In this document: piece by piece, positions 10,207 through 34,100 of the stretch
How the letters are laid out: each line of letters starts with the position of its first letter
Position numbering within the stretch: position 1 is the first letter of the stretch
Origin: an uncultured Bacillota bacterium
Lineage (GTDB): Bacteria; Bacillota; Clostridia; Christensenellales; UBA1242
Assembly: GCA_946499835.1 (NCBI GenBank)
Contig: CAMMTJ010000002.1
Location: forward strand, 79,368-143,367
Direction: 5' to 3'
Length of the DNA stretch: 64,000 nt
Program-made: the position numbers and the translations under genes
The notes under the pieces: generated by a model
Seen by the model: only the letters and a program-made list of their open reading frames with translations
Databases searched by the model: none
What the model was told of the DNA's origin: nothing

Positions 10207-12213
10207 TCAGTTTTTGTTTTCTTTTTTTGCGAGAAGGTCAAGTTGATATTGATGGCGCTTAAAAAAGTCCTCTCGCTCATAAAGTGTTTTGAGTTTTCGT
10301 GACTTTGACATAACATCAAAAATGCTTCCAAAGATATATTGCCAGTCAAAGCATTTTGATTTGTCAAGACCGAGATAATCTGCAACATTCTCCGTTCCGC
10401 TTGGCGCGATAGGGTGGAGAAGGGTGTTTGCCACAAATATCATTTGAGCGGTATTTGCAGAAAGTGTGGCAAGTTTGTCTTTTGAGGTCGCATTTGCAAT
10501 CTCTTTAACCCAATATTTGTTGATATTTCGAATAAAAACATCGAGGGCATTGTAAACTTGATGGAATTTTTTGTCATACATAAACTTTTCAACATCAAGA
10601 ATAACTTTTTTGCATGAAGCAAAAATATTTTCATCAAGATCGGCAAGAGGAAGCACTCCGTCAAAGTTGTTTTGTGTTGAATAGAAAAGTGTTCTCAAAA
10701 TTCTGTTATAGACATTTGTCAAAAGATTGCCTTCCACCACCATTGGATCAATATCATCCTCTTTTGCATCAGGATTAAATGCCTTTGGGCAAAGAGAGAC
10801 ATTGTTGTTTGTCAAATTCATTGCCAAAAAGTGTATGCGGAATTGTTCTGGCGTGTAATACTTCAAAAATTCTTCTGCCATAGGTGGTTTAAGAGCACCT
10901 GACGAACTTGCTTTTTGGTTCATATACAAAATAGATTTGATTGGGCATATTTTTGTCAGTTGAAGATCTCCTTTTTTTGGATGCAAAGAAAAGTTTTTGC
11001 CTTGCATAGCCATAAATATTGCCTGTTGTGCAGGGCCGTAAAAGTAAAGATTGTCTTCGCCCAAAAATTGATATACTTGTGCATCTGGATCAGCCCAAAA
11101 CTTTTTCCACTCATCCTTATCTTTTCCAATCTTTTCAAGATAGGTTTTTGTGAAAGAAATTGGTGCCCAAAGTGATTCTGGCCAAACATAGAAAGTTTGG
11201 TTTTTGACGCCTTGAATTTCTGGACAAGGCACGCCCCAGTCGATATCTCCTGTCAAACGGAAAGGGGTGAGTGTTTTGCCGGTGCGATAGCGTATGTCAT
11301 TCTTTGCCAGCACCTCACAAGCCTTTTCACGAAGTTCAAGTTTGTCAAAAACAATTGTCATGCTTGGTGCTTTTTCATTGCGTTCAAGTTCGACAAATGG
11401 TGGGAGAGAGGCTCTTATCTTTTCAAATTTATCAAAAAATTCGCGTTTGATGTATATTTCCGGCTTTTTGAAAAATTCTCTTATTTCCTTCACCATGAAT
11501 TGTGGTGTGTCGCTGTTTCTTGCGATAGAGTCTATCCATTCTGTCAAAAGTTCATGACACTGTTCAAGATTGAAATACAAGTTTTCAATTTTGACAAGTT
11601 CTGGCTTTTCGCCACTGAGAGAACTTATTGGATCAATCAAATCTTGTGGAAGATATTGATGTCCAAGATCGCACTCATCTGCATAGCCTTTTTCGCTTTG
11701 GCAACCCTCTATTGGGCATTTGCCAACAACCTGTCTACCATTGAGCAAACATTTGTGTTTTTTGTCATAGAATTGCCATGAAGAGTGAACAGAAACCATA
11801 CCAGCCTTGTCAAGAGTTGTGACAAATTCTCGGCTTTCTTCTTCATGAATTTCTTTTGATCTGCCGATGGCCGAACCGCCATAAAGGTCATGCACGATTT
11901 CAAAACGTTTGAAAATTTCTTCCTGTTTGTCATGGTTGCGTGTGACAAAGTCGGTCAATGTTTTGTCGTCAATTTTTCCTTCTTCTTTAAGTTTGCGGAA
12001 TGATTCTATGGCAGGTGAGCCATAACAGTCTGTTCCAGAAACGAAAATAACGTTATCTTTTCCAATGCGGTCACGCAAGAACCTTGCAAAAACGTCAGCA
12101 CGAAGCATCATGCCCACATGGCCGAAATGCAAAAGTTTGTTGCCATAAGGCATACCACCAGTGACGACCGCACGTTTTGGAAAAACAGGTCTTGGTCTAA
12201 CAAAATTTTCCAT
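10207..12213 (-). CDS. metG: Methionine--tRNA ligase, divergent type
   Basis: MPYGNKLLHFGHVG (HIGH region), a MetRS-type zinc knuckle CPIEGCQSEKGYADECDLGH, YVWPESLWAPISF and FLGEDNLYFY blocks collinear with E. coli MetRS. The KMSKS position reads KASSS. Confidence 0.8.
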   Translation of the reverse strand: MENFVRPRPVFPKRAVVTGGMPYGNKLLHFGHVGMMLRADVFARFLRDRIGKDNVIFVSGTDCYGSPAIESFRKLKEEGKIDDKTLTDFVTRNHDKQEEIFKRFEIVHDLYGGSAIGRSKEIHEEESREFVTTLDKAGMVSVHSSWQFYDKKHKCLLNGRQVVGKCPIEGCQSEKGYADECDLGHQYLPQDLIDPISSLSGEKPELVKIENLYFNLEQCHELLTEWIDSIARNSDTPQFMVKEIREFFKKPEIYIKREFFDKFEKIRASLPPFVELERNEKAPSMTIVFDKLELREKACEVLAKNDIRYRTGKTLTPFRLTGDIDWGVPCPEIQGVKNQTFYVWPESLWAPISFTKTYLEKIGKDKDEWKKFWADPDAQVYQFLGEDNLYFYGPAQQAIFMAMQGKNFSLHPKKGDLQLTKICPIKSILYMNQKASSSGALKPPMAEEFLKYYTPEQFRIHFLAMNLTNNNVSLCPKAFNPDAKEDDIDPMVVEGNLLTNVYNRILRTLFYSTQNNFDGVLPLADLDENIFASCKKVILDVEKFMYDKKFHQVYNALDVFIRNINKYWVKEIANATSKDKLATLSANTAQMIFVANTLLHPIAPSGTENVADYLGLDKSKCFDWQYIFGSIFDVMSKSRKLKTLYEREDFFKRHQYQLDLLAKKENKN

Positions 12214-12216
12214 ATT

Positions 12217-12822
12217 TCACCTAAAATCCTTTTTAAGAAATTGTAACTTATTTTTTATTCTTGTCAAAGCATTATCAATACTTTTTTTGCTTTCACCCAA
12301 ATTTGAAGCGATTTCATTGTAAGAATATCCTTGCAAATATTGTCCAAGCACTTGTCTTTCTCTTGGTGACAAGACTTCATTGACAAGAGAGAGCAGTTCC
12401 TCTTGATTTTCCCTTTCAATCACTTGGCTGTCAGGAGATGGCATTTGTGATGGGAGGATAATGTCAGCACTGCTGTCATTTTCATCATCAAAATCACTTT
12501 GTTCGCCAATTGAAAGAGCGGAAGAGAGCACTTTGTTTTTTTCTGCGTTCGCAATTTTGACAGCCGTTTGAATTTGGTGCTTTATGCAAATGGTTGCAAA
12601 TGTCTTGAACGATGCCTTTTTGCCATCAGTAAAGTTTTGAATGGCTTTATACAGCCCGATCATTCCTTCTTGAATGAGATCTTCCACGTCACCGCCTGCA
12701 AGAAAATATGTTCTTGAAAGTTTGTTCACCAAACTCTTGTATCTTGCAAAGAGTTCTGCCATAGCCTCATCATCACCTTGTTTTGCCAGCAAAACAAGAG
12801 TTTCATCTGTTTTTTCGCTCAT
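12217..12822 (-). CDS. sigH: RNA polymerase sigma factor, SigH-like
   Basis: DLIQEGMIGLYKAIQNFTDGKKASFKTFATICIKHQI closely parallels the Bacillus SigH region 2, and a C-terminal region-4 HTH is present. Start set at the ATG at 12822, behind the RBS AAAGGAGA and in frame with track ORF 12217-12837. Confidence 0.8.
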   Translation of the reverse strand: MSEKTDETLVLLAKQGDDEAMAELFARYKSLVNKLSRTYFLAGGDVEDLIQEGMIGLYKAIQNFTDGKKASFKTFATICIKHQIQTAVKIANAEKNKVLSSALSIGEQSDFDDENDSSADIILPSQMPSPDSQVIERENQEELLSLVNEVLSPRERQVLGQYLQGYSYNEIASNLGESKKSIDNALTRIKNKLQFLKKDFR

Positions 12823-12833
12823 AACATCTCCTT

Positions 12834-13556
12834 TCACTTGCTTTTTTGTCTTAGGACTTCAAAAATAACGATTCCGCAAGCAACGCTGGCGTTGAGTGAG
12901 TTTACATTGCCTTTAAGTGGAAGGGTGAGAATGCCGTCACACATATTTTTTATGGTTGGTTTTATCCCTTTTCCCTCAGAGCCGATCACAACAGCAATAG
13001 GTTTGTTGAGGTTTTCTTTGTAAATATCCTTTCCGCCAACCTCTGCACAGTAAACCCATATTCCACGATCTTGCATACTTTTGATTGAGTCTTTGAGGTT
13101 TGTCACCCTTGCAATTTTCATATTGAGTGCAGCCCCTGTGCTTGTGCGGATAACAGTTTCATTGACAGTGCAGGCACGATTTTTTGGTATGATAATTCCG
13201 TGCACGCCAGCACATTCACAAGAGCGGATAATTGCACCAAAGTTGTGCGGATCTTCTATGCCGTCAAGCAGAACGATAAAAGCATCCTCTCCTCTTTTTT
13301 CTGCCTCAGCAAAGATATCTTCCTCAGTTGAATAAGCAAAGTCAACACACTGGGCAATAAAGCCTTGATGATGAGCAGTTGCCGACTTTTTGTCTAGCAC
13401 ATTTTTTGGCAGATATTCAATTTTTATTCTGCTTTTGGTCAAAAGAAAAAGGAGGGGATCTTTGCGGTCACGCAAATTTTTGTCCACCATAACTTTGTTG
13501 ATTGTCAAGTTTGCATCGAGTGCTTCTTTTACTGCATTGCGTCCTTCTATTTGCAT
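12834..13556 (-). CDS. rlmB: TrmH/SpoU-family 23S rRNA 2'-O-methyltransferase (RlmB/YacO-like)
   Basis: 240 aa with an N-terminal substrate-binding domain plus a SpoU methylase core (NFGAIIRS, VIGSEGKGI, LNASVA). Classic position between mrnC and sigH. Confidence 0.8.
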   Translation of the reverse strand: MQIEGRNAVKEALDANLTINKVMVDKNLRDRKDPLLFLLTKSRIKIEYLPKNVLDKKSATAHHQGFIAQCVDFAYSTEEDIFAEAEKRGEDAFIVLLDGIEDPHNFGAIIRSCECAGVHGIIIPKNRACTVNETVIRTSTGAALNMKIARVTNLKDSIKSMQDRGIWVYCAEVGGKDIYKENLNKPIAVVIGSEGKGIKPTIKNMCDGILTLPLKGNVNSLNASVACGIVIFEVLRQKSK

Positions 13557-13558
13557 AG

Positions 13559-13957
13559 TTATTCTTCCTTTTGTTCTACTGAAAGTGAGAGAAATTTGCT
13601 TAGTCTATCTTTTTGCTCTAACAGATATAAATATCCAATCAGTGCCTCAAATGCTGTTGCGTGGATATAATCACTTGTGCTTGCATTTTTTGCTTGGTGC
13701 TTTGGTTTTGCATTCCTTGCCCTTCGCACAATTTCTTTTTCATCATCTGTGAGAAGGGGCAACAATTTTTCAAGAGCCTTGGATTGTGAAGATGCTCTGC
13801 AAAATTTTGATGCGTCTGAGTGATAATTTGTCATTTTGCCATTCTCAGTTGACAAAACATATTCACGCACAAACAGCGTGTGAACACTGTCACCAATAAA
13901 AGCGATTGGCAACATATTTGTTTGAATGAGTTTTTGCAAAAGTTTTTTCTTTTCCAT
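13559..13957 (-). CDS. mrnC: Mini-ribonuclease 3
   Basis: 132 aa with LPIAFIGDSVHTLFVREY and ATAFEALIGYLYL motifs. Synteny with rlmB and sigH as in Bacillus. Confidence 0.85.
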   Translation of the reverse strand: MEKKKLLQKLIQTNMLPIAFIGDSVHTLFVREYVLSTENGKMTNYHSDASKFCRASSQSKALEKLLPLLTDDEKEIVRRARNAKPKHQAKNASTSDYIHATAFEALIGYLYLLEQKDRLSKFLSLSVEQKEE

Positions 13958-15048
13958 TATACATTAAACCTAAAAAGCATAACATCGCCATCTTGAACGA
14001 CATAATCTTTGCCTTCAATGCGGACTTTTCCTTTTTCTTTTGCTTTGACAAAGTTGCCACATTCAATAAGATCGTTGTAAGAGACGACTTCCGCCTTAAT
14101 AAATCCCTTTTCAAAATCGCTGTGAATCTTTCCTGCCGCGCCAGGTGCTTTTGTGCCTTTTTTGATCGTCCAAGCACGCACTTCTTTTTCGCCGGCAGTA
14201 AGAAAACTCATAAGTCCCAGAAGGTCATAACTTGCACTAACAAGTTTTTCAAGACCACTTTCCTTTATTCCAAGTTCTTCCTTGAAAAGCGGACGCTCAT
14301 CAGGGGAGAGGGAAATGAGTTCTTCTTCAATTTTGGCACAAAGGGTGATGACTTTTGCATTTTCTTTTTGAGCATACTCTTTGACTTTCTTCACATAGCC
14401 ATTATCTTCTTTTCCAAGGTCATCTTCGCCGATGTTTGCAACATAGATAAGTGGCTTTGCAGTAAGCAGTTGAAGATTTTTAAGAATCTTTTCTTCATCT
14501 TCATCATAAGAAAGGTTTCTTGCCATTTGGTTGTTTTCAAGGGCAGATTTGATCTTTTGCATAAGATTGACAGAAGCGATCAGTCCTTTGTCGCCAGTTT
14601 TGACAAGTTTTGCATCTTTTTCAAGTTTTTTGCTCACCTGTTCAAGGTCTGCAAGGGCAAGTTCAAGATTGATCACTTCAATATCACGAATTGGATCAAC
14701 TGATCCACTGACGTGAATTATGTTTGGATCATCAAAACACCTTACCACATGCACAATGGCATCAACCTCGCGAATATGACTTAAAAACTTGTTTCCAAGT
14801 CCTTCGCCATGACTTGCGCCTGCCACAAGTCCTGCGATGTCAACAAACTCGATTGAGGCTGGCACTATTTTTTGTGTGTGATAAAGTTCACCCAAGACGT
14901 CAAGTCTTGGGTCTGGGACATCAACGATGCCTACATTTGGTTCAATTGTGCAAAAAGGGTAGTTTGCACTCTCTGCACCTGCCTCTGTGATAGCGTTGAA
15001 GAGAGTGCTTTTCCCTACGTTTGGAAGTCCAACAACTCCGATTTTCAT
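13957..15048 (-). CDS. ychF: Redox-regulated ATPase YchF
   Basis: 363 aa, G1 motif GLPNVGKSTLFNA, TGS-like C-terminus. Its stop overlaps the mrnC start by 1 nt (TAATG). Confidence 0.95.
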   Translation of the reverse strand: MKIGVVGLPNVGKSTLFNAITEAGAESANYPFCTIEPNVGIVDVPDPRLDVLGELYHTQKIVPASIEFVDIAGLVAGASHGEGLGNKFLSHIREVDAIVHVVRCFDDPNIIHVSGSVDPIRDIEVINLELALADLEQVSKKLEKDAKLVKTGDKGLIASVNLMQKIKSALENNQMARNLSYDEDEEKILKNLQLLTAKPLIYVANIGEDDLGKEDNGYVKKVKEYAQKENAKVITLCAKIEEELISLSPDERPLFKEELGIKESGLEKLVSASYDLLGLMSFLTAGEKEVRAWTIKKGTKAPGAAGKIHSDFEKGFIKAEVVSYNDLIECGNFVKAKEKGKVRIEGKDYVVQDGDVMLFRFNV

Positions 15049-15145
15049 AAATTTCTAGTCCTTTTTATCTGTAATATTTGTTTGCATGGAGGTGTAATAG
15101 TTTTTTTAATTAAACATTGCTCCAATTTCTTTCAAGAAAACTCTG

Positions 15146-18100
15146 CTATGAGGCCATTTCTTCCGAACTTTCAGAAGCATGACCAGTCCCTGCTTCTCTC
15201 TCTGCGGCGGCATGGCGCTCGCTTTCTGCCGCAGCAGCAGCCGACTCTCTTGCCTCTGCGTTTGAGATTTCATTATTAAGAGTTTCCTTTGCCGTTTTTG
15301 CTTTTTGTTTGTCAATTTTTCTTTGTTTCTTTTTCTTTTTGATCTTTCTATTTTTTCTTGCTTTTTTCAGTTTTTTCTTGACAGCCTTTTGAAGTTTTGC
15401 ACCTTTCTTTTCTGCCATGGCTGAACACTTGCCAAGTATTTCGTCAATATTACTTTCAGTTATGACAACATTTTTGAGTGCCTTCCAAATGCCAGAATCT
15501 GCTATATCATTCTCATGTTCTGCCATCCAAGCCTTAAACTCAGACAGTTTTGATGCAGAATCAAGATCTTTGATATCTTGTGAAAGTGCAAGGAAGTCGC
15601 TGTATGCCTGTTTCTGTTTGGCTTGATCCACCTTTGCATAAAAGAGAGAATCTTCTTTTTTCTGTTGTCTCTTTTGTGCTCGTGTTAGTTTTGGATGCTT
15701 TACAGAATCTTTGATAATTTCATTTATTTTTTCATTTCTCGCCGTTTCATCTGCTTCCTTTTCTGCATTTTTCAATTTTTTGGCAATTTTGCGATCGCTA
15801 CGTTTTAGGGCAGAGATAAGATGATTTTTTATTGTGTCTGTCTGGTAAATGCCATTGCTGGTTAGCAGTGTCACCTTGTTGCTATCCATAAGAGCGAGCG
15901 CTTGATCAAGGACGCTGTCAACATTTTCAAGGTCTGCGCCTTCAAGATGTTTTACAAATGCATCAACAAATGGTGCAAGTGACTTGTTTGATGAAATTGT
16001 GTTTATCAAAGAGATAACATTTTCTTTTCTTTTTGCTACTGCATTATCATAAGATTCAACCTCATTTGACAACCTTTGCAGTTCATCTTGAAGTTTTTTA
16101 TCATCTGACATTATGGCTTTTGCTGCATCACTTCCATGTCTTAAAGTCAACATTTTGGTAAGATTAGCATCAGCAGTTGCCAGAGCGACACCATTTGCAT
16201 TCATGAGCAAAGTTTGATTTGCAAGAGAACTTATTGTTCCATTTGCGCAAAGTTCGCACAGAACATTGAATCTATTTGTCAAAGAAGGAGTAAAATTGAT
16301 AGCAGTTTTTTTACCTTTTACTAGTTCATTATTGAGATCACAAGTTGCAAGATATCTATAAGCGATAGGTTGAATTTGAGAAATAAGTCGTTTTCTTTCT
16401 TTTTCAAAGTTTGGATTTTTTGCTGATTTATATTTAGTTTTCAAATATTTTCTAACAATTGTATCAATTTTGTCATCAGCGACGTCTTTTGCTTTAGAGG
16501 AACTTGTTTCTTTCAGACTTGTTTGCTTTTCAGAAACTCTTTTATCGACCTTTGATTTGATTTCAGTATTTTTTTCATGTAGATTTTTTAATAGTTGTAT
16601 TTCTTTTGGCAACTCTACATCATTCAAAGCCTTGATAATTTTATTCGTTGACATTTTTTGGCAGTCATCAAGTGACAAACCTTTTGTTTTTGCAAGATAA
16701 CTTGCCATTTGACCATGGACAAAATTGTCAACTTGAACAGAAGATGTTGATTTCAAATCGATCTCGCTGAAAATGTAAGAAGGGGAGCGTGGCATATCAG
16801 TCCAAGCCTTGCCAGATGAGTATTTTTCTCTTGCAAGTGCAATGTCAGAATTGAAAGATGTTTGAGCAAGCAGTTCCTCTCTTTCTATTATCAAATTGGC
16901 GATTTCTTTTTGTGTGTCATCTTCAAATGACGTAAGAGAGGTGATAAAATCTTTGACATGTTTTTGATCTTCTTCTGACAATGCTGAGAGCGAAGCGAGA
17001 GTTGGCATAGATTTTATCTTCTCATCAAGAAGATCCCTTTGTTGGGCGAGATTTGATTTTGCAATAGCGTTATTCAAGATCCTCTTGTTTTCCTGCATTC
17101 TAGTTTCGCTTATTGTTGTAGGAACACTGCGCCAAATGTCACGGAATTTGTTTTCAAGTTTGACCAAACTTTCATATAGTTCTGTAAAACCACTATACAC
17201 TTTCAAACTTCTGCTTGCTTTTTTGAAACCTTTGTTTTCCAAAGAAACATCAACTTCCAATTTTTCTTGTGCTTTCAAAAGAAGTTGTGAAATGTGACCT
17301 CTCTCTTGTTCAGGGAAAGATGAAACAAATGCAGAAAAGTCAAGACTGTCCATATCCGACTCACAAACAAATCTTTCCATAATATCGCTTGCATATCTTT
17401 CAACAAGTTTTTCTCTTTGCGCAGGGGTGAGTTTTGGATTTGCTATCGCTGTGCCAAGCATTCTCTTGTCACCATAGACAAGAATGTTGTGTTGTCTGTT
17501 TTCAAGAGTTTTTCTCTCTGTTATATTGTCTCTTTGTGCTTTGTTGTATTTTGAAAATGCTTGAACGACATTTTTATCAAGGATTGGTTTGTTTGTTTTA
17601 TCAAAGAATTTCCCTTTGATGGCATCAAAAATTTCTTTATCTTCGCCTTTGTATATATGTGTTTTAATGAATGATTCAATATCCTTTTCTTCCAGATGTG
17701 ATGATGTTGATTTATCAATTAAACGTTGGTATTCATTTATTAGATCTGAGCGTTTTTGGATATTTTCTTCACTAATAAAGGAGTTCCAGTCAGGCGGAAT
17801 AACAAAATCTTGTGCATTTTCTTGTGTAACGCCAAATTCTTGTCCATAAAGAAGTGGCTTCTCTTCTCCCCACATTGCATCAAACCCTGCAACGAGACCT
17901 TGAGCCTGTTCGAGATTTTGGTCAAGGGCTTTATCATTTTCCCAAAAAGCCTCTTGTTGATTTTCATATTCACGTTCTTGTTCGTTGAGCGGATCAATAT
18001 ATTTTGTTTTGATTGAGTGGAGTGGATCGTTGAGATAGTCAAGCATCATGATATAGCCTTGTCCACCAAGGAAGGCAACCGCTCCAATGCTTGCAATCAC

Positions 18101-19486
18101 TGCACCAGCGATTGGTCCCAAAAGAACAGAGCACATCATAAGGGCAATTGCAAGAATAGTCACAATATGTCCAGGCATTGGACCATATTTTTTCTGCTCT
18201 GTCACTTTTTTGAGCGGTGTTTTTGTAGGTCCAGGTGGAGGGGGTGGAGGAGGTGGTTCAATGCCCCCAGTTTCTTCCTGCGTGGCAGAGAGTTTGTTAC
18301 GTTTTTCGTTGAGGTTGATATATAAGGTGTTTCTTTTATCTTTAAGTGTTGGATGAACGGTCAGCCCTTCTGCCAATTTGTATCCAGGTGTACTTGTGTC
18401 GTTACGGCAGGTGATAGGTTGTCCGTATTCTTTTTCAGTTTGTTTTTTGCCACTTTGAATAAAGTTTACAAGTTCGTTGAGTGCATTCTTTTTAGCAACA
18501 TCGTCTTCACCTTTACTTTCTGCAAAGTCTGATAGATCACCACCTGTGTTTAATGCATACTCATAACTGTTTTGTCTGTTTGTGGTGGCATTGAAATAAA
18601 GGTTCAATTCACCATTTTTTCCTATGGTTTGAAAGAAGTATTGATCTACAGCGAACCACTTTCCATCACTATAAAAACAAATTCCATTGTCCGGCATTTT
18701 TGCCAAGATTAAAGGATTGACTGCATTTTGTTTATTCTCAGCAGTAGGAGGAGTATAGACAAAATATGACACGCCTTTGTTGTTGGGATTTGGATCTTCA
18801 ATCAGTGTTGTCATCGCCTTGGCTGGATCATGGTTGATGCCTTTTGCTTTGCAGTATGCCAGAGCTATATAGTATGGAGGGAGTTGTGCTCTTGTTTTTT
18901 CAATATCAGTGTTTTTTGCTGGGCTAGGCATAGAAAGAAGCTGATCATTTTGATCACAAAGTCTTTCAATGCACTCGGTAGAAACTGAGGCATCAAGTGG
19001 AATAACTTCACCTTTTTCGTCGACAGAGTTGTATGTGAACACTTGACGGCTGTCACCTTCACCCATTTCAAGTTTTGCACCACCAGCATGGACAAAAAGG
19101 GTGTATTCCTGCCCATCACTACTTTTAATGGTCATTTTTGTCTCATCTTTTGAAAAATCAATAGAGATTGGATTGTCTTTTCCAGTTTTTGTTACTTCCA
19201 GCATGCAAGTGTTACCGATCTTAAAAGTAGGGGGAATTTTCCCGTCACGAGTTGTGAAAAGACTTGCATCAAATGATACATAAGTTTTTCCGTCTGCCGC
19301 TTGTGCAACTTGCAATTTTGTGGTTGAGCCTACGCTAAAAGAGACAAGTGATTTTTGGTTGGCATCAACTACTGTCTTTTGTTTAAGGCCAGTGTGCTTT
19401 TGTCCCTTAACATCAGTGATTGTTGTGTTTCGTTCAACAGTGATAGGCCCCGAGGTTTTTAATACGTCTGCCATGTTTTCCTCCAT
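15146..19486 (-). CDS. Giant orphan membrane-associated protein (1446 aa)
   Basis: Uninterrupted 4.3-kb ORF. A beta-rich N-terminal roughly 400 aa without signal peptide, a PPPPPPPPGP run (about 18224-18253), two adjacent hydrophobic helices (about 18044-18175), roughly 950 aa of helical K/E/D/L-rich sequence, and a poly-Lys then acidic/Ala tail. Confidence 0.85.
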   Translation of the reverse strand: MEENMADVLKTSGPITVERNTTITDVKGQKHTGLKQKTVVDANQKSLVSFSVGSTTKLQVAQAADGKTYVSFDASLFTTRDGKIPPTFKIGNTCMLEVTKTGKDNPISIDFSKDETKMTIKSSDGQEYTLFVHAGGAKLEMGEGDSRQVFTYNSVDEKGEVIPLDASVSTECIERLCDQNDQLLSMPSPAKNTDIEKTRAQLPPYYIALAYCKAKGINHDPAKAMTTLIEDPNPNNKGVSYFVYTPPTAENKQNAVNPLILAKMPDNGICFYSDGKWFAVDQYFFQTIGKNGELNLYFNATTNRQNSYEYALNTGGDLSDFAESKGEDDVAKKNALNELVNFIQSGKKQTEKEYGQPITCRNDTSTPGYKLAEGLTVHPTLKDKRNTLYINLNEKRNKLSATQEETGGIEPPPPPPPPGPTKTPLKKVTEQKKYGPMPGHIVTILAIALMMCSVLLGPIAGAVIASIGAVAFLGGQGYIMMLDYLNDPLHSIKTKYIDPLNEQEREYENQQEAFWENDKALDQNLEQAQGLVAGFDAMWGEEKPLLYGQEFGVTQENAQDFVIPPDWNSFISEENIQKRSDLINEYQRLIDKSTSSHLEEKDIESFIKTHIYKGEDKEIFDAIKGKFFDKTNKPILDKNVVQAFSKYNKAQRDNITERKTLENRQHNILVYGDKRMLGTAIANPKLTPAQREKLVERYASDIMERFVCESDMDSLDFSAFVSSFPEQERGHISQLLLKAQEKLEVDVSLENKGFKKASRSLKVYSGFTELYESLVKLENKFRDIWRSVPTTISETRMQENKRILNNAIAKSNLAQQRDLLDEKIKSMPTLASLSALSEEDQKHVKDFITSLTSFEDDTQKEIANLIIEREELLAQTSFNSDIALAREKYSSGKAWTDMPRSPSYIFSEIDLKSTSSVQVDNFVHGQMASYLAKTKGLSLDDCQKMSTNKIIKALNDVELPKEIQLLKNLHEKNTEIKSKVDKRVSEKQTSLKETSSSKAKDVADDKIDTIVRKYLKTKYKSAKNPNFEKERKRLISQIQPIAYRYLATCDLNNELVKGKKTAINFTPSLTNRFNVLCELCANGTISSLANQTLLMNANGVALATADANLTKMLTLRHGSDAAKAIMSDDKKLQDELQRLSNEVESYDNAVAKRKENVISLINTISSNKSLAPFVDAFVKHLEGADLENVDSVLDQALALMDSNKVTLLTSNGIYQTDTIKNHLISALKRSDRKIAKKLKNAEKEADETARNEKINEIIKDSVKHPKLTRAQKRQQKKEDSLFYAKVDQAKQKQAYSDFLALSQDIKDLDSASKLSEFKAWMAEHENDIADSGIWKALKNVVITESNIDEILGKCSAMAEKKGAKLQKAVKKKLKKARKNRKIKKKKKQRKIDKQKAKTAKETLNNEISNAEARESAAAAAESERHAAAEREAGTGHASESSEEMAS

Positions 19487-19666
19487 GATTATAGTTAATT
19501 TATAATAACATTTAATAACAATAAAGTCAACAAAATATAGAAAGTGAGGGGGTGAGGAGAAAGATTTCTTTTATAATTTTTTCACCGCTTTGTAATGAGA
19601 AATTTTGTTTTTTTTGTTGTCTGTGAGGAAAAATCTTTTCAAAATGGCAATAAAGTCAAAAAGTAT

Positions 19667-19695
19667 TTGAAAAATACAAACTTTTTTGCTAAAAT
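19667..19695 (+). promoter_or_regulatory. Sigma-A type promoter for secA
   Basis: TTGAAA (19667-19672), a 17-nt spacer, then TAAAAT (19690-19695), 28 nt upstream of the secA ATG. Confidence 0.6.
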
Positions 19696-19723
19696 ATTGA
19701 AAAGTGAAACAATAGGAGTGAAA

Positions 19724-22459
19724 ATGGGACTTTTTGGAAATGAAAACAAATCACAAATAAAAAAATTGAAAAAGATTGCCGACAAGGTTATAGCGCTTGA
19801 AGACAAGTATGCTTCTTTTTCAAATGAACAACTTCGTGCCTGCACGGATGAGTTCCGCAATAGATACAAAACAGGGCAAAGCCTTAATGATCTTTTGCCA
19901 GAGGCTTATGCTGTTGTTAGGGAAGCGGCGACAAGAGTTTTGAACATGAGGCATTATTATGTGCAAATTCTTGGTGGAATTGCTCTTCATCAAGGACGTA
20001 TTGCTGAAATGGGCACAGGTGAAGGTAAAACTTTGGTTGAAACACTTCCTGCCTATCTTAATGCCATATCTGGCAATGGGGTGCATATTGTCACTGTCAA
20101 CGAATATCTTGCAAAACGTGACGCCGAGTGGATGGGAAAAGTTTACAAATTTTTGGGGATGAGTGTTGGCGTTATTCTCAATGGACAAAATGAAAAGCAA
20201 AAGAAAATGGCTTACAACGCTGACATAACTTATTGCACAAACAACGAACTTGGATTTGACTATCTGCGTGACAACATGGCGACAAACAGGAATCAACGTG
20301 TGCAACGTGGTCAAAACTTTGCTATTGTCGATGAGGTGGACTCTATATTGATTGATGAGGCAAGGACACCACTTATCATATCTGGAATGGGCTCAAAATC
20401 AAGTGAAGGATATGTGAATGCACAAAGGTTTGTCAAAACTCTTAAAAAAGACCAGGATGTTGAAATCGATGAAAAGACAAAACAACTCAACTTGACTGAA
20501 AGTGGAATTGAAAAGGCTGAAAGATTTTTTAAGATCAACAGTTTGTCTGATGTTGAGAATATTGAACTTAATCACTATATCAACAACGCACTTCGTGCAA
20601 ATTACATCATGTTCCGTGATGAAAACTATATCGTCAAAGATGGCGAGGTAATCATTGTTGATGAGTTTACCGGACGTTTGATGCCAGGACGTAGATTCAA
20701 TGCTGGGCTTCACCAAGCAATAGAGGCAAAGGAAGGAGTTGCAATCAAGGATGAAAATCAAACGCTTGCGACAATAACTTTCCAAAATTATTTCCGCCTT
20801 TACAAGAAACTCTCTGGTATGACAGGAACTGCCAAGACAGAAGAAGGTGAATTCCGCACAATTTACAATCTGGACGTTGTGTCAATCCCTGCAAACCTTC
20901 CAAAGAAGAGAATTGACGAGCCAGACATTGTTTATGTGACCGAACAAGGAAAGATCAAGGCGATTGTTGAAGAGATCAAAGAATGTGCAAAGAAAGGTCA
21001 ACCAGTGCTTGTCGGCACAATCACTATCGACAAATCAGAACTTTTGTCAAAGGCACTCAAAGAGGCAAAGATCAAACACGTTGTTTTGAACGCCAAAAAT
21101 CATGAACAAGAAAGTGAAATTGTTGCACAGGCTGGACGTAAAGGTGCGGTGACAATCGCAACCAATATGGCAGGTCGTGGAACAGATATTTTGCTGGGCG
21201 GAAACCCAGAATTTATGGCAACAAAACGAATGAGAGGTGAAAACTTCACCGAAGAAGAAATCTCATATGCCACAGCCTTTAACACAGTTGATGATGAAAA
21301 GTTAAACAAGGCAAGAGAAAGATACAACGAACTTTACAAAGACTATAAAGTTGTCACAGATCAAGAAAAAGAAGAAGTTAAAGCACTTGGTGGACTTCAT
21401 ATTGTCGGCACTGAAAGACATGAGTCACGCCGAATTGACAACCAACTTCGTGGTCGTGCTGGACGTCAAGGAGACCCTGGCTCATCAGTGTTCTTCTTAT
21501 CACTAGAAGATGACCTTATCAGACGCTTTGGTGGGGATAGATTGAAAAGGCTTGCAATCTTTTTCAGACTTGATGACACAACACCAATTCAACTGAAAAT
21601 GCTTTCAAAGCAGATTGAAAACGCACAAAAGAAGATAGAACTTCAAAACTTTGCACAAAGAAAAATGGTTATCCGTTTTGACGATGTGCTCAACAAACAA
21701 CGTGAGATCATTTATGGTGAACGTAACCGCGTTCTTGATGGACTTCCAGTGCATGAGCATATCATGAAAATGGTTCCAGAAATTGTCAACAAGGTGATAA
21801 GAGAATGTCTGACAGATGAAAAACCATATTATGAATGGGATTTGTCAAAAATCAATATTGACCTTGAAAAAGGACTTATTGAAAAGGGCAGAAACCTCAT
21901 TGATGAAAAGTTTGTGGAAGAGTGTGACGTTGATGATGTGGTTGACAAAGTGCTGAGCAATGTTGAAAAACGCATGGAAGAGCAAAGTAAGACTATAACA
22001 GACGCTGGATACAAGTTTGAAGACCTTGAAAGATCGGTGCTTTTGCGTGTTGTTGATATGAACTGGATGAATCATATCGAAGATATGCAGATTATGAAAA
22101 ATGAAATATTTGCTCGTGGTTTTGGCAATCAAGATCCTGTGCTGGCTTACAAAAAAGATGGATTTGAAATGTTTGACAAGATGATTGACAAAATCAAGGA
22201 AATGACAGTTTATATTCTTCTCAATGTCAAAATTCAAGCTCCACAATCACAAATGAGCGAGCCTGTCCGTCAACAGTCATACAATGTTGTTGTCACTGGC
22301 AAAGAGTTGACGCCAGAAGAGAGAGCAAAACAACGAAGAGAAAACAAACCATTTGTGCAAAAAACGGTGGTAAACACTGAGAAAAAAGTTGGGCGAAATG
22401 ATCCTTGTCCATGCGGAAGTGGTTTGAAGTATAAAAACTGCTGTGGGAAAGATAAATAA
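19724..22459 (+). CDS. secA: Preprotein translocase ATPase SecA
   Basis: Start set at MGLFGNENK behind the RBS AGGAG, in frame with track ORF 19595-22459. DEAD-like motor motifs (MGTGEGKTL, DEVDSILIDEARTPLIISG, TNMAGRGTDI) and a C-terminal zinc finger CPCGSGLKYKNCCG. Confidence 0.96.
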   Translation: MGLFGNENKSQIKKLKKIADKVIALEDKYASFSNEQLRACTDEFRNRYKTGQSLNDLLPEAYAVVREAATRVLNMRHYYVQILGGIALHQGRIAEMGTGEGKTLVETLPAYLNAISGNGVHIVTVNEYLAKRDAEWMGKVYKFLGMSVGVILNGQNEKQKKMAYNADITYCTNNELGFDYLRDNMATNRNQRVQRGQNFAIVDEVDSILIDEARTPLIISGMGSKSSEGYVNAQRFVKTLKKDQDVEIDEKTKQLNLTESGIEKAERFFKINSLSDVENIELNHYINNALRANYIMFRDENYIVKDGEVIIVDEFTGRLMPGRRFNAGLHQAIEAKEGVAIKDENQTLATITFQNYFRLYKKLSGMTGTAKTEEGEFRTIYNLDVVSIPANLPKKRIDEPDIVYVTEQGKIKAIVEEIKECAKKGQPVLVGTITIDKSELLSKALKEAKIKHVVLNAKNHEQESEIVAQAGRKGAVTIATNMAGRGTDILLGGNPEFMATKRMRGENFTEEEISYATAFNTVDDEKLNKARERYNELYKDYKVVTDQEKEEVKALGGLHIVGTERHESRRIDNQLRGRAGRQGDPGSSVFFLSLEDDLIRRFGGDRLKRLAIFFRLDDTTPIQLKMLSKQIENAQKKIELQNFAQRKMVIRFDDVLNKQREIIYGERNRVLDGLPVHEHIMKMVPEIVNKVIRECLTDEKPYYEWDLSKINIDLEKGLIEKGRNLIDEKFVEECDVDDVVDKVLSNVEKRMEEQSKTITDAGYKFEDLERSVLLRVVDMNWMNHIEDMQIMKNEIFARGFGNQDPVLAYKKDGFEMFDKMIDKIKEMTVYILLNVKIQAPQSQMSEPVRQQSYNVVVTGKELTPEERAKQRRENKPFVQKTVVNTEKKVGRNDPCPCGSGLKYKNCCGKDK

Positions 22460-28145: not shown

Positions 28146-31100
28146 TTACTTAACTTTCATGCGTTTTCTAAGTTTAAGTGTGATCAGCACGATTGCAACT
28201 GCTGCCAAAACGCCAAGCACAATGGCAATGATTGCCCACGCGTTGAGTGGATCTGTTTTTACAACTCTATATGAATAGAGAAGTGTTCCGCTTTCAGTGA
28301 AGAGTTGAATGTAATATGTGCCAGAATTTGAAATTGTGATTGTGGCATTTGCAGGGTAGTCTGCCAAAGTCTCTTCATTGAAGTCATATCTTTGATTTCC
28401 AACGATAAGATATGAGTCGCCCACTGCATTGTAAAGGTTTTGCGTGTTGAATGAAATTGTGATTGGGCTTGTTGTTGATGTGTTCTCTGCAACTGAAACA
28501 GAGATTGGTGGAAGTGCTGTGTTGATCCAAACTTCAAAGGTGAAGGTGTCAGAGGTTACTTGAGGGTATGAGGTCTCGTCTTTTGTGAGATAATCACTGA
28601 TACCTGTTTTCATAGTGATGATGTAATGTCCGCCACCAGTTCGCTCATCATAGTATGAGAGAAGAAGTTCGTTGAGATAATTTTCTCCATCAACAGTGAT
28701 CAAGTTGCTTGACAGGAGTGATTTCAAATCTTCTGTTATATCAACGGCGTTTGCTTTATCTGAGGTGTATTTGAGAACGCTTTCAATATAATAATTGCCA
28801 TAAGGCGAAACTTGATATGAGAGAGTTGATTCTCTGTTGTTGATAATGGTGAAAGTGTAAACCTGCTCACGAATTGCAATAGAGTTTGCTCTGTCTGTTG
28901 CTGAGAAGGTCACTCTATAATATCCAGGTTCAGAGAATGTGTATGAATATGAGTTTTGTGTGAAGTTTGTATATTCATTTCCATTTCTTGTCACGTGGAT
29001 GCTTGGATAGCCTGATGGGTTATAATAAGTTGAAAGATCAACAAGCGAAAGGGTGACATCACCATTATAAACCGCTCTATCAGTTGGTTCAACGGTGATT
29101 TGCTCTTGTGAAAGAGCATCTGTGTATGTCACATGGAAAGGCACGGTGTTGAGGAAGATTATGCTTAAATATTGACTTGCGCCAAAGTTGTGAACATTGG
29201 CAGGTGAGCATGAGTCAATAAATTGCAATTGATAACTTCCCGCTCTGTCAATATCGACATAGTTCAAGTTGCCATTTCTGTGAACTTGAAGGTTGATTGG
29301 AACATATTGTCCATTGAAAAGTTTTGAAATAACAACTGTGATTTGATTTTCCTCTATTCCATAATAGCCAGTCCAAGAAAGTCGCATATATGCAGAACTT
29401 GCACCATTTTGATCTGTGCTTACAACGATTGGTGCGCTCGAGCCACCAAGCAATGATTGACTTTGATTTGCACCAGTGGCTGTGTAATCAAGTCGATCCA
29501 AAATTGTTGTGGTTTCTTCAATATAGATTATTGTGAAATAGCCTTCTGACTGATCACAAGTGTAGTGATAAATTTCAACGACAACATTTGTGCCAGTTTG
29601 TTCAGTTCTGATAGGCTCTATCACATCTTCATTGCTGTTTCCGTTGTTGATGATAACGCCAAGTTCTTTATTGCGTTCAATGACAACGCGGGAGTCTTTA
29701 TCGTTGTAATCTACGCTGATGATATAGTTTGTGTCATATTGTCTGCCAGTGCTGTCAGTGTATGTGATATCATTCGCTTCAACTCTAAGTCCGTCAACGG
29801 TGATGAAATAATACGTGGAAGATGAGTTGAGAATAGTGAGATGCAACAATTTGAATTGATCGGTCAAAACTTCATTTGTGTCATATTTGACAAGAATGAT
29901 ATACTCGCCAACACCTCTGATTGCATATCCAGCACTTGCATAACTGTTGACATTCAACCAGTTCTGCCCATTATCTGATGAGATGTAAACGCTGTATGGA
30001 TATTGATCAAGATAAGAATATTCTCCATCTGCCGTTTGTTGCTGTCCGTCGTCGAAACGAAGGGTAACAACGTTTGAATAAGTTGTCAGATATGTCGCAT
30101 GGCTTGTTGTCAGAATTTGTCCATCAAATTCAACTGACAATTCATTTTCGCCAAAGCCATCGATATATTCGTTGTATCTATCTAGGAACCAGATATCGTT
30201 TGCATCGCTTGCTTCGGCAGAAGAGCCAATAACGTTTGGCAAACGATCATAAACACGGACGATGACAGTTCTAACAGGCTCGCTGTTTGTTGCCATAAGA
30301 TTCTCTTCAAGTTCGTAAACGGTGAATCTATAAACTATGTCATAGTTGCTTTCATCACTAGCCACGTCCAAATATTGGATTGTTGTTGTGCCAGAAAGTC
30401 GTGACCAAGAAGGGTTTTCAACTTTTTCAAACTTAAGAGTATCGCTCTTAAATTCTTCAACAACAACATTGTAAAGAAGTTCGTTGTATTGGAAGCGCAA
30501 TGTGTCTGCTGAAAGGTAGGTGGTTGAGAGCATATCATCAGATTCAGTTGTCTGATAGATAGCCGTTCCACTTGGGCTGACAACTTCTTCACAACTTTCC
30601 TCATTTTGGATTTGAACAACGATTGTGCTGTGTCCAAAATTGTCAACGATTGTGTAACGAAGTTTTCCAGATGCAAGGGCGCCAAAGTTTACTGCAAATC
30701 TCAGTCTTCCTGTGCTTGCGTTGTAACTAATGGTTACACCAGGCACTGATGAAGTCCAAAGGCTTGGATTTCCAGAAGGATTTGATTGATGGAAGATTTG
30801 ATTGTAAATGTTGCCAGTGTCACTAAATTGTGCAATCGTTATATCAACAGGGAATATTGTAGCCGTTGTTGTGCTTGCGATTTCGCTTGCAGATGGCACT
30901 CCAATTTCAAAGATTGCCGTGTTTGGTGTGGCAGAATCTTGAATTTTGTATGTTGGAAGTGTGGCATCCATTATTGAAAGGTAAATTCTTGTGCTTTGTC
31001 CACTTTCTCTGTTTGCAAGAAGCATTGTGTGCTTTGTGGTTGAAGAAGGGACATCTGCAAAGATTTGTGATAGTTCTACCACTTGTGCGTTGAGCACGCC

Positions 31101-34100
31101 AGAGTTATTTGACAACAGATAGATTTGGTTATCTTCAAGCAGAGGGCTTGTCATGTAGTAATATCTTGTGTCACTTATTGTCATTGTGTAGAAGCCCCAA
31201 GGATCGCTTTGGAAATTCAAGGTTTGAAGTTCCATTCTGCTGTTTGAATAGATATTGAAACCGTCTTGAATTTCAGCGTTTGTGATAACTTCTGCGTTGT
31301 CAAGTTGTGAATTGGTGTATGAAATTGCAGTTTCATTTTCATTGTTGACTGTGAAATGAACAAGATAAACAGTCATATTTCCAGCCATATCCATTTCAAC
31401 AATTTCACGATATTCATTTGCTATAATTTCAGTTTCATCAAAGTTTTCAACCAGTGTGTAAGCCGCAGGAGCAAAACTGTTTCTTGTCACTTGAACATAG
31501 CCTTCAAGATCATCATAACTTATTGCTTCATTGTTGATATAGATATATTTTGATCCAGTGTTCTGTGCTTGTGCTGAAAGGGTTCGAAGAGTTGCAATAT
31601 AGTCTGTGCCAACATTGTATGCGTATTTGTCAAAGATGCCTTCTGCTTTTGAGTAAGAATAACTTACATTTGCAAGCATCGTGAGAATGTTGTCAGAAGT
31701 CCAAGAAGAGGTGTCGATTATTTCATTGTTATAATCATAAAGATTTCTCATATTGGCTTCTTGATAAAGTCTGTTGAAGAAGTTTGTTGATGTGGTGACA
31801 TTGTTCATAAGAGAGCCAAGGTTATCAAGCGGTGCACTATAATCAACATATACTCTTTTTGTTGTTGTTTCATAATAATTTTCATTGTAGCCTTCATACT
31901 GCATTCTCACTTGAATATAAGCACCATTTCTCCAAAGGTCAGTTCCTTCAAGAGCGTATGAGAATGAGTTTTCAAGTCCGCTGGTATCAATTGTGCCACT
32001 ATAAGTGAAAGTGTTTGTTTGAGTGCCATTGAATGTGGTTATTTGAATGTTTGCTTTGTCAATGTTTGCAATATAATCACTTTCTGAATCATACCATCTG
32101 AAAGTTACAGAAGGTGAGTTTGTGTAAGCGGTTTGAATTGAACCTTCCTCGGTTGTGTCAAGGACGACACCTTGCTCAGTGATAATATCAAAGGCAGGAG
32201 CACTTGATTCAATTCTGAAAGAGAAGGTGTATGATCTTCTGAAAGATTCATTTTGAGATCCTTGATATATCGTCACTTCATAAACACCGCTTTGCCAGAA
32301 GGAAACAGCATTGCTTGCACTTATATCTTCTGGAAGGTCATCTGTTTGGCTGTCAACTGCGAAGAAGAGGAGGTATCTTCCGTCAGATGTTAAGTCACCA
32401 GTCTTATACCATTGTTCTCTGCTTCCACTTGTGAAACAAACTTCTGCATAAAGTTTGTATTCTTCAATTGCAGAGTTATTCAAGACTTGTAGTGCTTGTT
32501 GTTCGGTATCATAACTTCCTACCACAATGCCTTCTGCTGTCTTAACTTGGTATCTGCCACCATTATTAGTTATAGACAAGTCACCATAACTTGATAGAGA
32601 ATTGTTTATATCAACGCTGTATGAGTTGTCTTTTGGTAAATATGTGAAATTGTATGTGTATTTATACTCAGGGATATTTAGGCTGACTGGCAGTTTGTTT
32701 GTTGTCACGCTGTAAACTATTCCGCCAGACGTTGATGATGCAAATGAACCGCTGTTAAGACCATTGTCAATAGAATAATTTGGGAATGAAACTGAAATTG
32801 ATGAGTTGCCATCACCTTGATACATTTGCAACAGCATATCTCCACCGATAATGCTTTCAAGTCCAACGCCAGCACTTTCTCTTTCTGGTTGATCACCTTC
32901 GTTAAGTCCATAAAGGGCCATTTGACCATTTTGCAAAATATAATAAACATCATCTGTTGAGTTGATTTTTTTGTAAAGTGTTATTGTCTGGCCATCTGTT
33001 GTAAGATTGTAAACTTCATATACAGTGGCACTGCCGTCTGAATTTGTGTGGGTGTAGAACTGTCCACCTGTCACAGATTCCTGATCTGAAATGACGTTGT
33101 ATCTATCCACATAGAGAGTCAAATCTCTCTCGAAATAGTCATAAGTTGCAACTGTTGAATCTGTGCGATATTGCCTTATAAACACATATTTGCCAGGATT
33201 GATTGTGCCGTTTGCAACTGATGCAAGGTCATATGTTTGTCCTTCATTTGGTGTATATTCAGTTGAATCATTGTAAGTAAAGATAGGTGTTATGTTTGGT
33301 GTGTCAGAAATGGTGTAATAGTATGCAGTCGCTCCATAAGGGTTTCCATTTCCGTCATACATTATGATTTGTCTTGATTCTTTGACATAAGGGTAGTAAT
33401 ACATTGTCACGCTTTGAACAGTGCTTCCGTCTTCTGCCAAAGGTATGTAATAAAGGTAAAGTGGTGACAGTGAAGTTGGTGAATAATATGCATATCTGAA
33501 TGTCTTGTTAGAAACAGAAGTGTATTCATCGTTTTGAACTTTTGAAAGATTTCCGTTGCTGTCTTCATAGAATGAGCCTATGAAAGAAAATCCTGCGCTG
33601 TCAATAAGAGAATTTGGTTCAGATTGATCTGTGATAACACCAAGCCTTGATGAGTCTGAGGTGATATTGATTGTTGCGATAGCACTTGGATAGGTTGTAT
33701 AGCCATATTCATTTGCCACACCTCTTGTGTTTGATTGGTCACGAAGAAGGAATTTCCATGTGCCTTCTCTTGCCACAGTTTGTCCATTCTCTTCCTTAAA
33801 GAAAGGTATGAGGTGGGATGTAGAGCCAGAGGCTACAATTTCATTTGAGTATGAAGAAGAATCATCATCTTTGACATAGATGTCATCTTCAAGAGGAATG
33901 ATAAGATAATCGCCAGTGTAAGATTCTATGCCAGAAGCAGATGGAGGAGTTGCACTTGAAGTCACTTGCAATCTCTGCACTTGACCGCTATCAGCGAAAA
34001 ATTCTTGGAATTTTTCTGGCCATTTTGCTTTTTCTTCATCTGAAAGCCTATCTTGTGAATAGGTGCCCAAAATGCCAGAAAGAGAGCCAGTGCCAATAGA

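Follow-up and report, generated by a model that had tools for sequence, protein, structure and literature searches.

The open reading frame (ORF) considered here occupies positions 15146–19486 on the minus strand of a stretch of 64,000 nucleotides (the window, i.e., the whole stretch of DNA that was analysed) from the genome of an uncultured Clostridia bacterium of the chicken gut. As an earlier note on this DNA had described, it is situated between ychF (13957–15048, minus strand), which lies downstream on the same strand, and the divergently oriented secA (19595–22459, plus strand), with a gap of 108 bp between secA and the ORF. Its protein (P0001, referred to below as the giant protein) was divided into the following parts:

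15146–19486, minus strand: whole ORF of P0001, 1446 codons plus stop, and uninterrupted, as the earlier note had it
18272–19486, minus strand: head (residues 1–405), mainly beta, of a length that varies between relatives, with the motifs SxDGxxY, AxG and YGE found family-wide
18176–18271, minus strand: linker (residues 406–437), poly-Pro followed by a basic patch TKTPLKKVTEQKK, modelled as disordered
18227–18256, minus strand: PPPPPPPPGP run within the linker (residues 411–420), read from the sequence
18041–18175, minus strand: hydrophobic hairpin (residues 438–482), two arms flanking Gly457-Pro458
16994–18040, minus strand: conserved helical core (residues 483–831), consisting of a juxtamembrane stalk up to residue 539 and a helical domain at residues 548–750
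15380–16993, minus strand: clade-specific helical tail (residues 832–1369), recognisable in 14 close relatives only
15317–15379, minus strand: polybasic stretch KKKLKKARKNRKIKKKKKQRK (residues 1370–1390), with K/R at 16 of 21 positions
15149–15286, minus strand: Ala/Glu/Ser-rich acidic end (residues 1401–1446), near-invariant in the close clade, including a shortened relative (P0015)

In a Kyte-Doolittle scan with 19-residue windows, values above 1.4 were reached only for windows starting at residues 434–464 (maximum elsewhere 0.86), and the N-terminus contained no hydrophobic stretch that could serve as a signal peptide, in agreement with the earlier note. The same holds for the poly-Pro run and for the basic stretch followed by an acidic Ala/Glu/Ser tail that had been read from the letters: the final 46 residues contain 11 D/E versus 3 K/R. 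From residue 493 to the end, the protein is rich in K (12.4%), L (9.2%), A (9.1%), E (8.8%), S (8.7%) and D (6.8%).

Likewise, no catalytic or adhesin domain could be recognised. P0001 had no match in Pfam (at E-values up to 0.1), NCBIfam, PHROGs or PADLOC, and neither PDB sequence searches nor Foldseek nor VIA returned a significant match, so that the profile and structure searches proposed in the earlier note revealed no homology to a known family. Searches of the ESM Atlas with residues 1–405 and 483–1130 gave no usable match either. When a profile (A4, built from 24 sequences) that covers the hairpin and the 350 residues after it was compared with PDB sequences, the best row was ribosome recycling factor (E-value of 0.0057), which was set aside as noise, no stretch of it passing alone. 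Internal repeats of the core within the tails were not significant, except that one module is partly duplicated in tandem in some of the relatives.

The giant protein is nevertheless not the orphan that the earlier note had taken it for. A word-indexed search yielded 14 close relatives in all, i.e., nine full-length proteins with 81–96% identity, four with 44–69% identity over the best local alignment, and P0015, a 900-aa form that lacks the head and the hairpin and is ~36–38% identical overall. The alignment of this close clade is a mosaic: the linker, the hairpin and ~70 residues following it are almost unchanged, as are the polybasic stretch and the acidic end (AEREAGxGxASESS[ED]EMxS), whereas identity in the head falls to ~45%. 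One relative (P0011) joins a head like that of the window protein to a core like that of P0012, the latter bearing a 100-residue duplication.

Two further observations concern this clade. The final ~80 residues of P0015 are almost the same as those of P0001 (window 15149–15400), which points to either recombination of diverged alleles or strong constraint on the C-terminal peptide. Moreover, a CxxC motif (C-E-L-C, residues 1077–1080, window 16246–16257) and Cys1049 are near-invariant in the close clade, with P0015 lacking both, and may form a metal site.

Beyond the close clade, a search of 24 congeneric genomes with P0001 as a single query gave only weak matches, in four of them; the ORFs hit (1328, 1574 and 2217 aa) have the same build and occupy the same slot between secA and ychF. 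A profile of residues 1–800 from four sequences reached 51 of 101 genomes of the genus (37 of the 73 high-quality ones), the matched frames measuring 454–2252 aa and mostly exceeding 1,000 aa. Inspection of the slot itself revealed a giant gene of matching build beside ychF/secA in 34 out of 34 congeners (23 + 6 + 5), with one copy per genome. All 23 profile-positive genomes contained a giant ORF with a single long hydrophobic stretch adjoining ychF and/or secA (both flanks being visible in 21 of these loci, while one was cut by a contig end and one had secA beyond the stretch inspected). In the six genomes with only weak hairpin matches the slot was filled by ORFs of 741–1034 aa, and in the five profile-negative genomes by ORFs of 908–1570 aa with a hydrophobic stretch of ~40 residues, apart from one that a contig end truncates at 687 aa. 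The frame was open across 741–2222 codons in the 33 complete orthologues (the 34th being truncated by a contig end), and the hairpin and core were kept in those members that the profiles recognise.

Outside the genus, no giant gene was present upstream of ychF in five genomes (two of the same family but of different genera, and three of different families). A search of 1.84 billion representative proteins with A4 gave 70 clusters, of which 60 have a length of 994–2701 aa and the other ten, at 86–900 aa, are probably fragments; no credible match beyond the genus was found among them. In 301 genomes of the order, A4 produced six weak matches among the 290 out-of-genus genomes (E-values of 1.5e-5 to 5e-4). 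These were confined to profile positions 2–146, i.e., the N-terminal third with the hairpin, and were rejected as hydrophobic noise; the two that were inspected are proteins with four transmembrane (TM) helices (831 and 795 aa) in unrelated contexts. A contig-database search with P0001 returned no relative, and a full-text literature search found no described family of such proteins, as the earlier note had surmised. Judged by these comparisons, the giant proteins are a genus-restricted, positionally fixed and very fast-evolving new family without a name.

The pace of this evolution is apparent when the giant protein is set against its neighbours. Compared with the proteins of 33 congeners, the YchF encoded in the window has a median identity of 81% and its SecA one of 73%, whereas the giant protein reaches 21%. 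Family-wide alignment is possible only for the head motifs, the hairpin and the ~350-residue core. At strain level, however, the giant gene is not hypervariable, with 27 differences over 3122 nt versus 25 over 1382 nt for secA in one DNA run.

The hydrophobic segment was examined across 88 distinct cores from the family. The median length of these cores is 43 aa (range 32–51), 76 of them have a Pro in the central 14 residues, and 63 are flanked on both sides by at least two K/R within 15 residues. Because a 43-residue core exceeds one membrane span and suits two, it likely forms a hairpin of two short spans, and by the positive-inside rule basic flanks mark the cytoplasmic side. Together with a helix break in the AlphaFold2 model (see below), these family features speak for a hairpin whose two ends are both cytoplasmic, and hence for the arrangement suggested in the earlier note, in which two back-to-back hydrophobic helices place both large domains on the same side of the membrane. 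Moreover, in one member (P0064) the head has an FtsK_gamma domain at its N-terminus (45.3 bits in Pfam versus a cut-off of 30.6), which is a DNA-binding winged-helix module working in the cytoplasm.

AlphaFold2 models were obtained for two overlapping parts of P0001. For residues 1–831 (29-row alignment), the mean predicted local distance difference test score (pLDDT) was 72.1 and the predicted template-modelling score (pTM) 0.43. In this model the head is made up mainly of strands with some helices between residues 12 and 345 (pLDDT of 70–90 for residues 12–200 and 52–78 for residues 200–345), in line with the ~400-residue beta-type region of the earlier note, and is followed by a disordered linker at residues 407–436 (pLDDT below 50). 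The hydrophobic region is modelled as helices 438–455 and 458–539 with a break at residues 456–457, so that the second arm extends as a long stalk towards the helical domain at residues 548–750 (pLDDT mostly 81–94). For residues 800–1446 (12-row alignment; mean pLDDT 79.9, pTM 0.61), the model contains ~30 helices of 4–49 residues each plus two small beta hairpins, and ends with two long helices bearing the polybasic stretch. The long K/E-rich helical region of the earlier note is thus supported by both composition and model, but the tail is modelled as a packed body of short helices and not as a single coiled-coil rod. Foldseek comparison of these models with the PDB gave best E-values of 7.6e-3 (head, hairpin and core) and 9.8e-2 (tail).

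At the C-terminus, charge was tallied over 107 family rows (not dereplicated): the last 25 residues carry a net negative charge in 92 rows, and the 45 residues preceding them a net positive one in 82. The last 110 residues are also enriched in a cationic amphipathic 11-mer, with a mean best hydrophobic moment of 0.52 versus 0.30 in control windows, and this region outdid each of the five controls in 32 out of 76 members, where ~13 would do so by chance. Examples from the C-termini of the family are FKKLANLFNKA, LGKIFGNMARK and FFRRFARAVAK. The membrane-targeting sequences of MinD and FtsA are similar amphipathic helices, and act on the cytoplasmic face of the membrane.

Expression signals were examined around the 5′ end of the gene, where two features were located:

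19502–19530, minus strand: sigma-70-like promoter (TTGACT, 17 nt, TG-n-TATTAT), with 10 of 12 consensus matches and an extended –10 box, from a consensus scan only
19484–19480 and 19474–19472, minus strand: GGAGG Shine-Dalgarno sequence and probable true ATG start (Met5), respectively, from the sequence and the homologue alignment

The GGAGG lies within codons 1–3 of the ORF and 5 nt before the ATG of Met5, which is an invariant column in the alignment and the residue at which six of nine aligned homologues start (MAD/MAK). Because of this spacing and these homologue starts, the true start is probably Met5, which would give a protein of 1442 residues.

This DNA is present in chicken-gut metagenomes, namely in 19 of the 23 runs listed, which come from nine studies. 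In two metatranscriptome runs from one chicken-gut study, contigs with 100% identity cover most of the gene, and one of these (737 nt, 14534–15269) crosses the junction between the end of the giant gene and the start of ychF; a scan for terminator-like sites between both genes on the minus strand found none. These contigs are suggestive, but not proof, of transcription of the giant gene and of co-transcription with ychF, because DNA can be carried over into such RNA libraries.

Our preferred reading, which we hold tentatively and at somewhat less than even confidence, is that the giant protein is a lineage-specific cytoplasmic scaffold held at the membrane by its hairpin, with the basic C-terminal segment as a possible second tether; its function is judged from its anatomy. 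The 45-residue hydrophobic segment would insert into the cytoplasmic membrane as a helical hairpin, so that the beta-rich head and the ~950-residue helical part would both be cytoplasmic. The second arm would run on as a long stalk helix into a conserved helical domain of ~250 residues, which would be the invariant core of the family, and the remainder of the tail would be a clade-specific helical body. Near the C-terminus, the polybasic stretch might return to the anionic membrane surface or bind nucleic acid, with a cationic amphipathic helix likely taking its place in most relatives, while the acidic end could act as a free peptide for partner-binding or self-masking. The head would in turn be an exchangeable binding module. 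The likeliest role for such a protein would be to hold a cytoplasmic assembly at the membrane, e.g., in division, sporulation or nucleoid anchoring.

Among known proteins, the nearest analogue for this proposed way of working is EzrA of Bacillus and Staphylococcus (PF06160), a membrane-anchored, all-helical and poorly conserved cytoplasmic scaffold of Firmicutes. EzrA differs in having one N-terminal TM helix followed by spectrin-like repeats (~560 residues), and in lacking a head, a hairpin and a polybasic/acidic end. P0001 in contrast has no PF06160 match, and its hydrophobic region at residues 438–482 follows a 405-residue head. The genome, which measures 0.996 Mb and is 99% complete, encodes MreB and two penicillin-binding proteins. 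No EzrA match above the cut-off was found in it (the only weak match, on contig C5, scored 17.3 bits versus 39.6), and DivIVA (PF05103) was found neither in P0001 nor genome-wide at an E-value of at most 0.001.

Bacterial dynamin-like proteins, mitofusins and flotillins are likewise anchored by a hairpin that is flanked on either side by large helical parts in the cytoplasm. Unlike these, P0001 matched no GTPase, Dynamin_N or SPFH domain in Pfam, and the only Foldseek row for a dynamin pair had an E-value of 0.95. TipN of Caulobacter, a polar landmark scaffold, is a large membrane-tethered protein whose long helical or acidic cytoplasmic part recruits assemblies, and HubP of Vibrio is reported to be of the same kind (PMC8789113). 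Both resemble the giant protein in being lineage-restricted and fast-evolving. They differ in belonging to Proteobacteria and in their anchors, with N-terminal TM helices (as well as a LysM domain in HubP), and no similarity of P0001 to TipN or HubP was found in sequence or fold.

Several observations weigh against a cytoplasmic scaffold. The RNA-library contigs possibly stem from carried-over DNA, and very fast divergence is no less typical of proteins that act at the surface or in interactions than of scaffolds inside the cell. In P0001 itself, the C-terminal flank of the hairpin is net acidic (DYLNDP...), unlike that of most family members, and the cationic amphipathic 11-mer is lacking, with a poly-Lys stretch present instead. 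Furthermore, two family members carry N-terminal BspA-type leucine-rich repeats (LRR_5, PF13306), in two blocks in P0049 and one block in P0050, and such domains are usually found at cell surfaces. LRR_5 is absent from P0001 and is an N-terminal add-on in these 2 of the 52 family representatives scanned. Like P0064, P0049 and P0050 are without a signal peptide, and the domain matches suggest that heads of this family can acquire extra N-terminal modules. Finally, Pro/Thr-rich runs that resemble wall-spanning linkers form the tails of L071 and L079, both of them divergent positional orthologues.

These leucine-rich heads and Pro/Thr-rich ends, as well as the extreme divergence between species at a fixed locus and the mosaic alleles of the close clade, would fit the main rival explanation, namely a surface-exposed protein for contact with a partner or host. 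Its hydrophobic segment would then act as a single signal-anchor (head in, tail out), or both large parts would be exported by an unknown route, and its variable parts would contact other cells on which the reduced-genome bacterium depends. Such a lifestyle has been proposed for the Christensenellales family UBA1242, to which the present genome might belong: these bacteria of animal guts, with genomes under 1 Mb, are held to be partner-dependent and to encode many unknown membrane proteins (PMC12306168). Nevertheless, P0001 lacks a signal peptide, and the 43-residue length, central Pro and basic flanks of the hydrophobic cores suit a hairpin better than a single span. The FtsK_gamma domain of P0064 indicates the cytoplasm, and Pfam revealed no wall-anchor, S-layer or sortase-type domain in any of 63 members (i.e., the window protein, the 52 family representatives and ten divergent positional orthologues). 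We know of no Firmicutes route that would export an N-terminal domain of 430 residues without a signal sequence, and the absence of hypervariability at strain level also speaks against exposure at the surface. Surface location is on balance rather unlikely, although it remains the strongest competitor of the cytoplasmic scaffold.

A variant that stays closer to the scaffold, but to which we give only a small chance, is that the family underlies, from the cytoplasm, an apparatus for cell contact or feeding that is private to a partner-dependent, genome-reduced Clostridia lineage. The giant protein would in that case organise, from the inside, fast-evolving giant envelope proteins encoded elsewhere in the genome, much as the cytoskeleton of the Mycoplasma terminal organelle underlies its adhesins. 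If true, the rapid divergence would track changing partners.

An effector that is delivered to another cell and inserts its hairpin into the membrane of that cell, as chlamydial Inc proteins do, is unlikely, and more so than a contact apparatus. The giant protein does have the hallmark of Inc proteins, i.e., a bilobed hydrophobic hairpin (~40–60 residues in Inc proteins, 40–50 here) that would place both flanks on the same side, and no signal peptide, and both its fast evolution and the add-on leucine-rich domains of some relatives would be in keeping with delivery. Inc proteins are, however, type III substrates of obligate intracellular bacteria, with many paralogues per genome and mostly under 400 aa, whereas the giant gene is present in one copy per genome, in a housekeeping slot kept in all 34 congeners, and in Clostridia. 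Effector repertoires are usually multi-copy and variable. Moreover, because no WXG100 protein was found in the genome (no PF06013 match) and just one strong FtsK/SpoIIIE match (PF01580, in a 1007-aa frame, next to two weak matches in other frames), nothing points to a type VII system, types III and IV not having been searched for.

Least probable is a decaying functionless gene or a mobile-element remnant akin to phage tape-measure proteins, which are likewise long, helical and poorly conserved with internal hydrophobic hairpins, and to which the best BFVD row of Foldseek (a tail tape-measure fragment, E-value of 4.2e-4) and a sub-threshold TMP_3 match in P0071 (19.8 bits versus a cut-off of 41) would point. 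Against this, the weak top BFVD rows have template-modelling scores of 0.07–0.13 (0.07–0.09 for the best, at a root-mean-square deviation of 29 Å), PHROGs and Pfam gave no match to P0001, and what is found in place of a phage context is a conserved single chromosomal copy with housekeeping flanks in every genome inspected, an open frame in all complete orthologues and a conserved hairpin and core.

With regard to the surroundings of the gene, ychF is followed on the minus strand by genes for mini-RNase III, a SpoU-type rRNA methyltransferase, a sigma factor and a class-I tRNA synthetase (window 10207–15048), an order that we take to resemble the cysS-mrnC-rlmB-yacP-sigH region of Bacillus. The order of ychF, mini-RNase III and SpoU-type methyltransferase is kept in most of the congener loci inspected. 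On the other side, between secA and the giant gene, nine of the 23 relatives' loci contain an extra gene of 486–816 aa on the strand of the giant gene:

L007, 5242–6933: extra gene
L046, 2000–4237: extra gene
L047, 9659–11920: extra gene
L048, 9225–11504: extra gene
L052, L053, L054, L058 and L060: extra gene in each

Eight of the encoded proteins were compared and fall into families of their own, several beginning with an amphipathic helix (MGLFKNI... or MGFLKNI...). The four that were scanned had no Pfam match, and one used as query had no copy in the genome of the window.

Elsewhere in the window, two more very large ORFs are present, at 28146–36941 (minus strand, 2931 aa) and 55321–59637 (plus strand, 1438 aa). 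At the start of the window, five DnaA-box-like sites lie within 120 bp (121–239), two of them being perfect TTATCCACA. Only this clustering is worth noting, because window-wide counts of such sites are at chance (20 found versus 19.3 expected). Over positions 1–22000, the guanine-cytosine (GC) skew of the plus strand changes sign between ~12 and 19 kb, from slightly negative to strongly positive values, and remains positive across a large minus-strand gene. Because of the DnaA-box cluster and this turn in skew, a replication origin may lie near this end of the window; dnaA itself is on a different contig (C8). The spacer between secA and the giant gene was also considered as an origin, and was rejected for lack of a DnaA box.

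The giant proteins would thus make up a new structural family, with a hairpin, a conserved helical core and a basic/acidic end, and with no detectable relative of known function or fold. A lineage with a genome of ~1 Mb, which has discarded most biosynthesis, still keeps this 4.3-kb gene in a housekeeping slot. Because that slot is filled in every congener inspected while the protein diverges far more than its neighbours, the giant protein appears to matter for the way in which this particular lineage lives. Knowledge of its topology and partners would reveal how the membrane is organised in such minimal Firmicutes, and possibly also how their contact with partner cells is.

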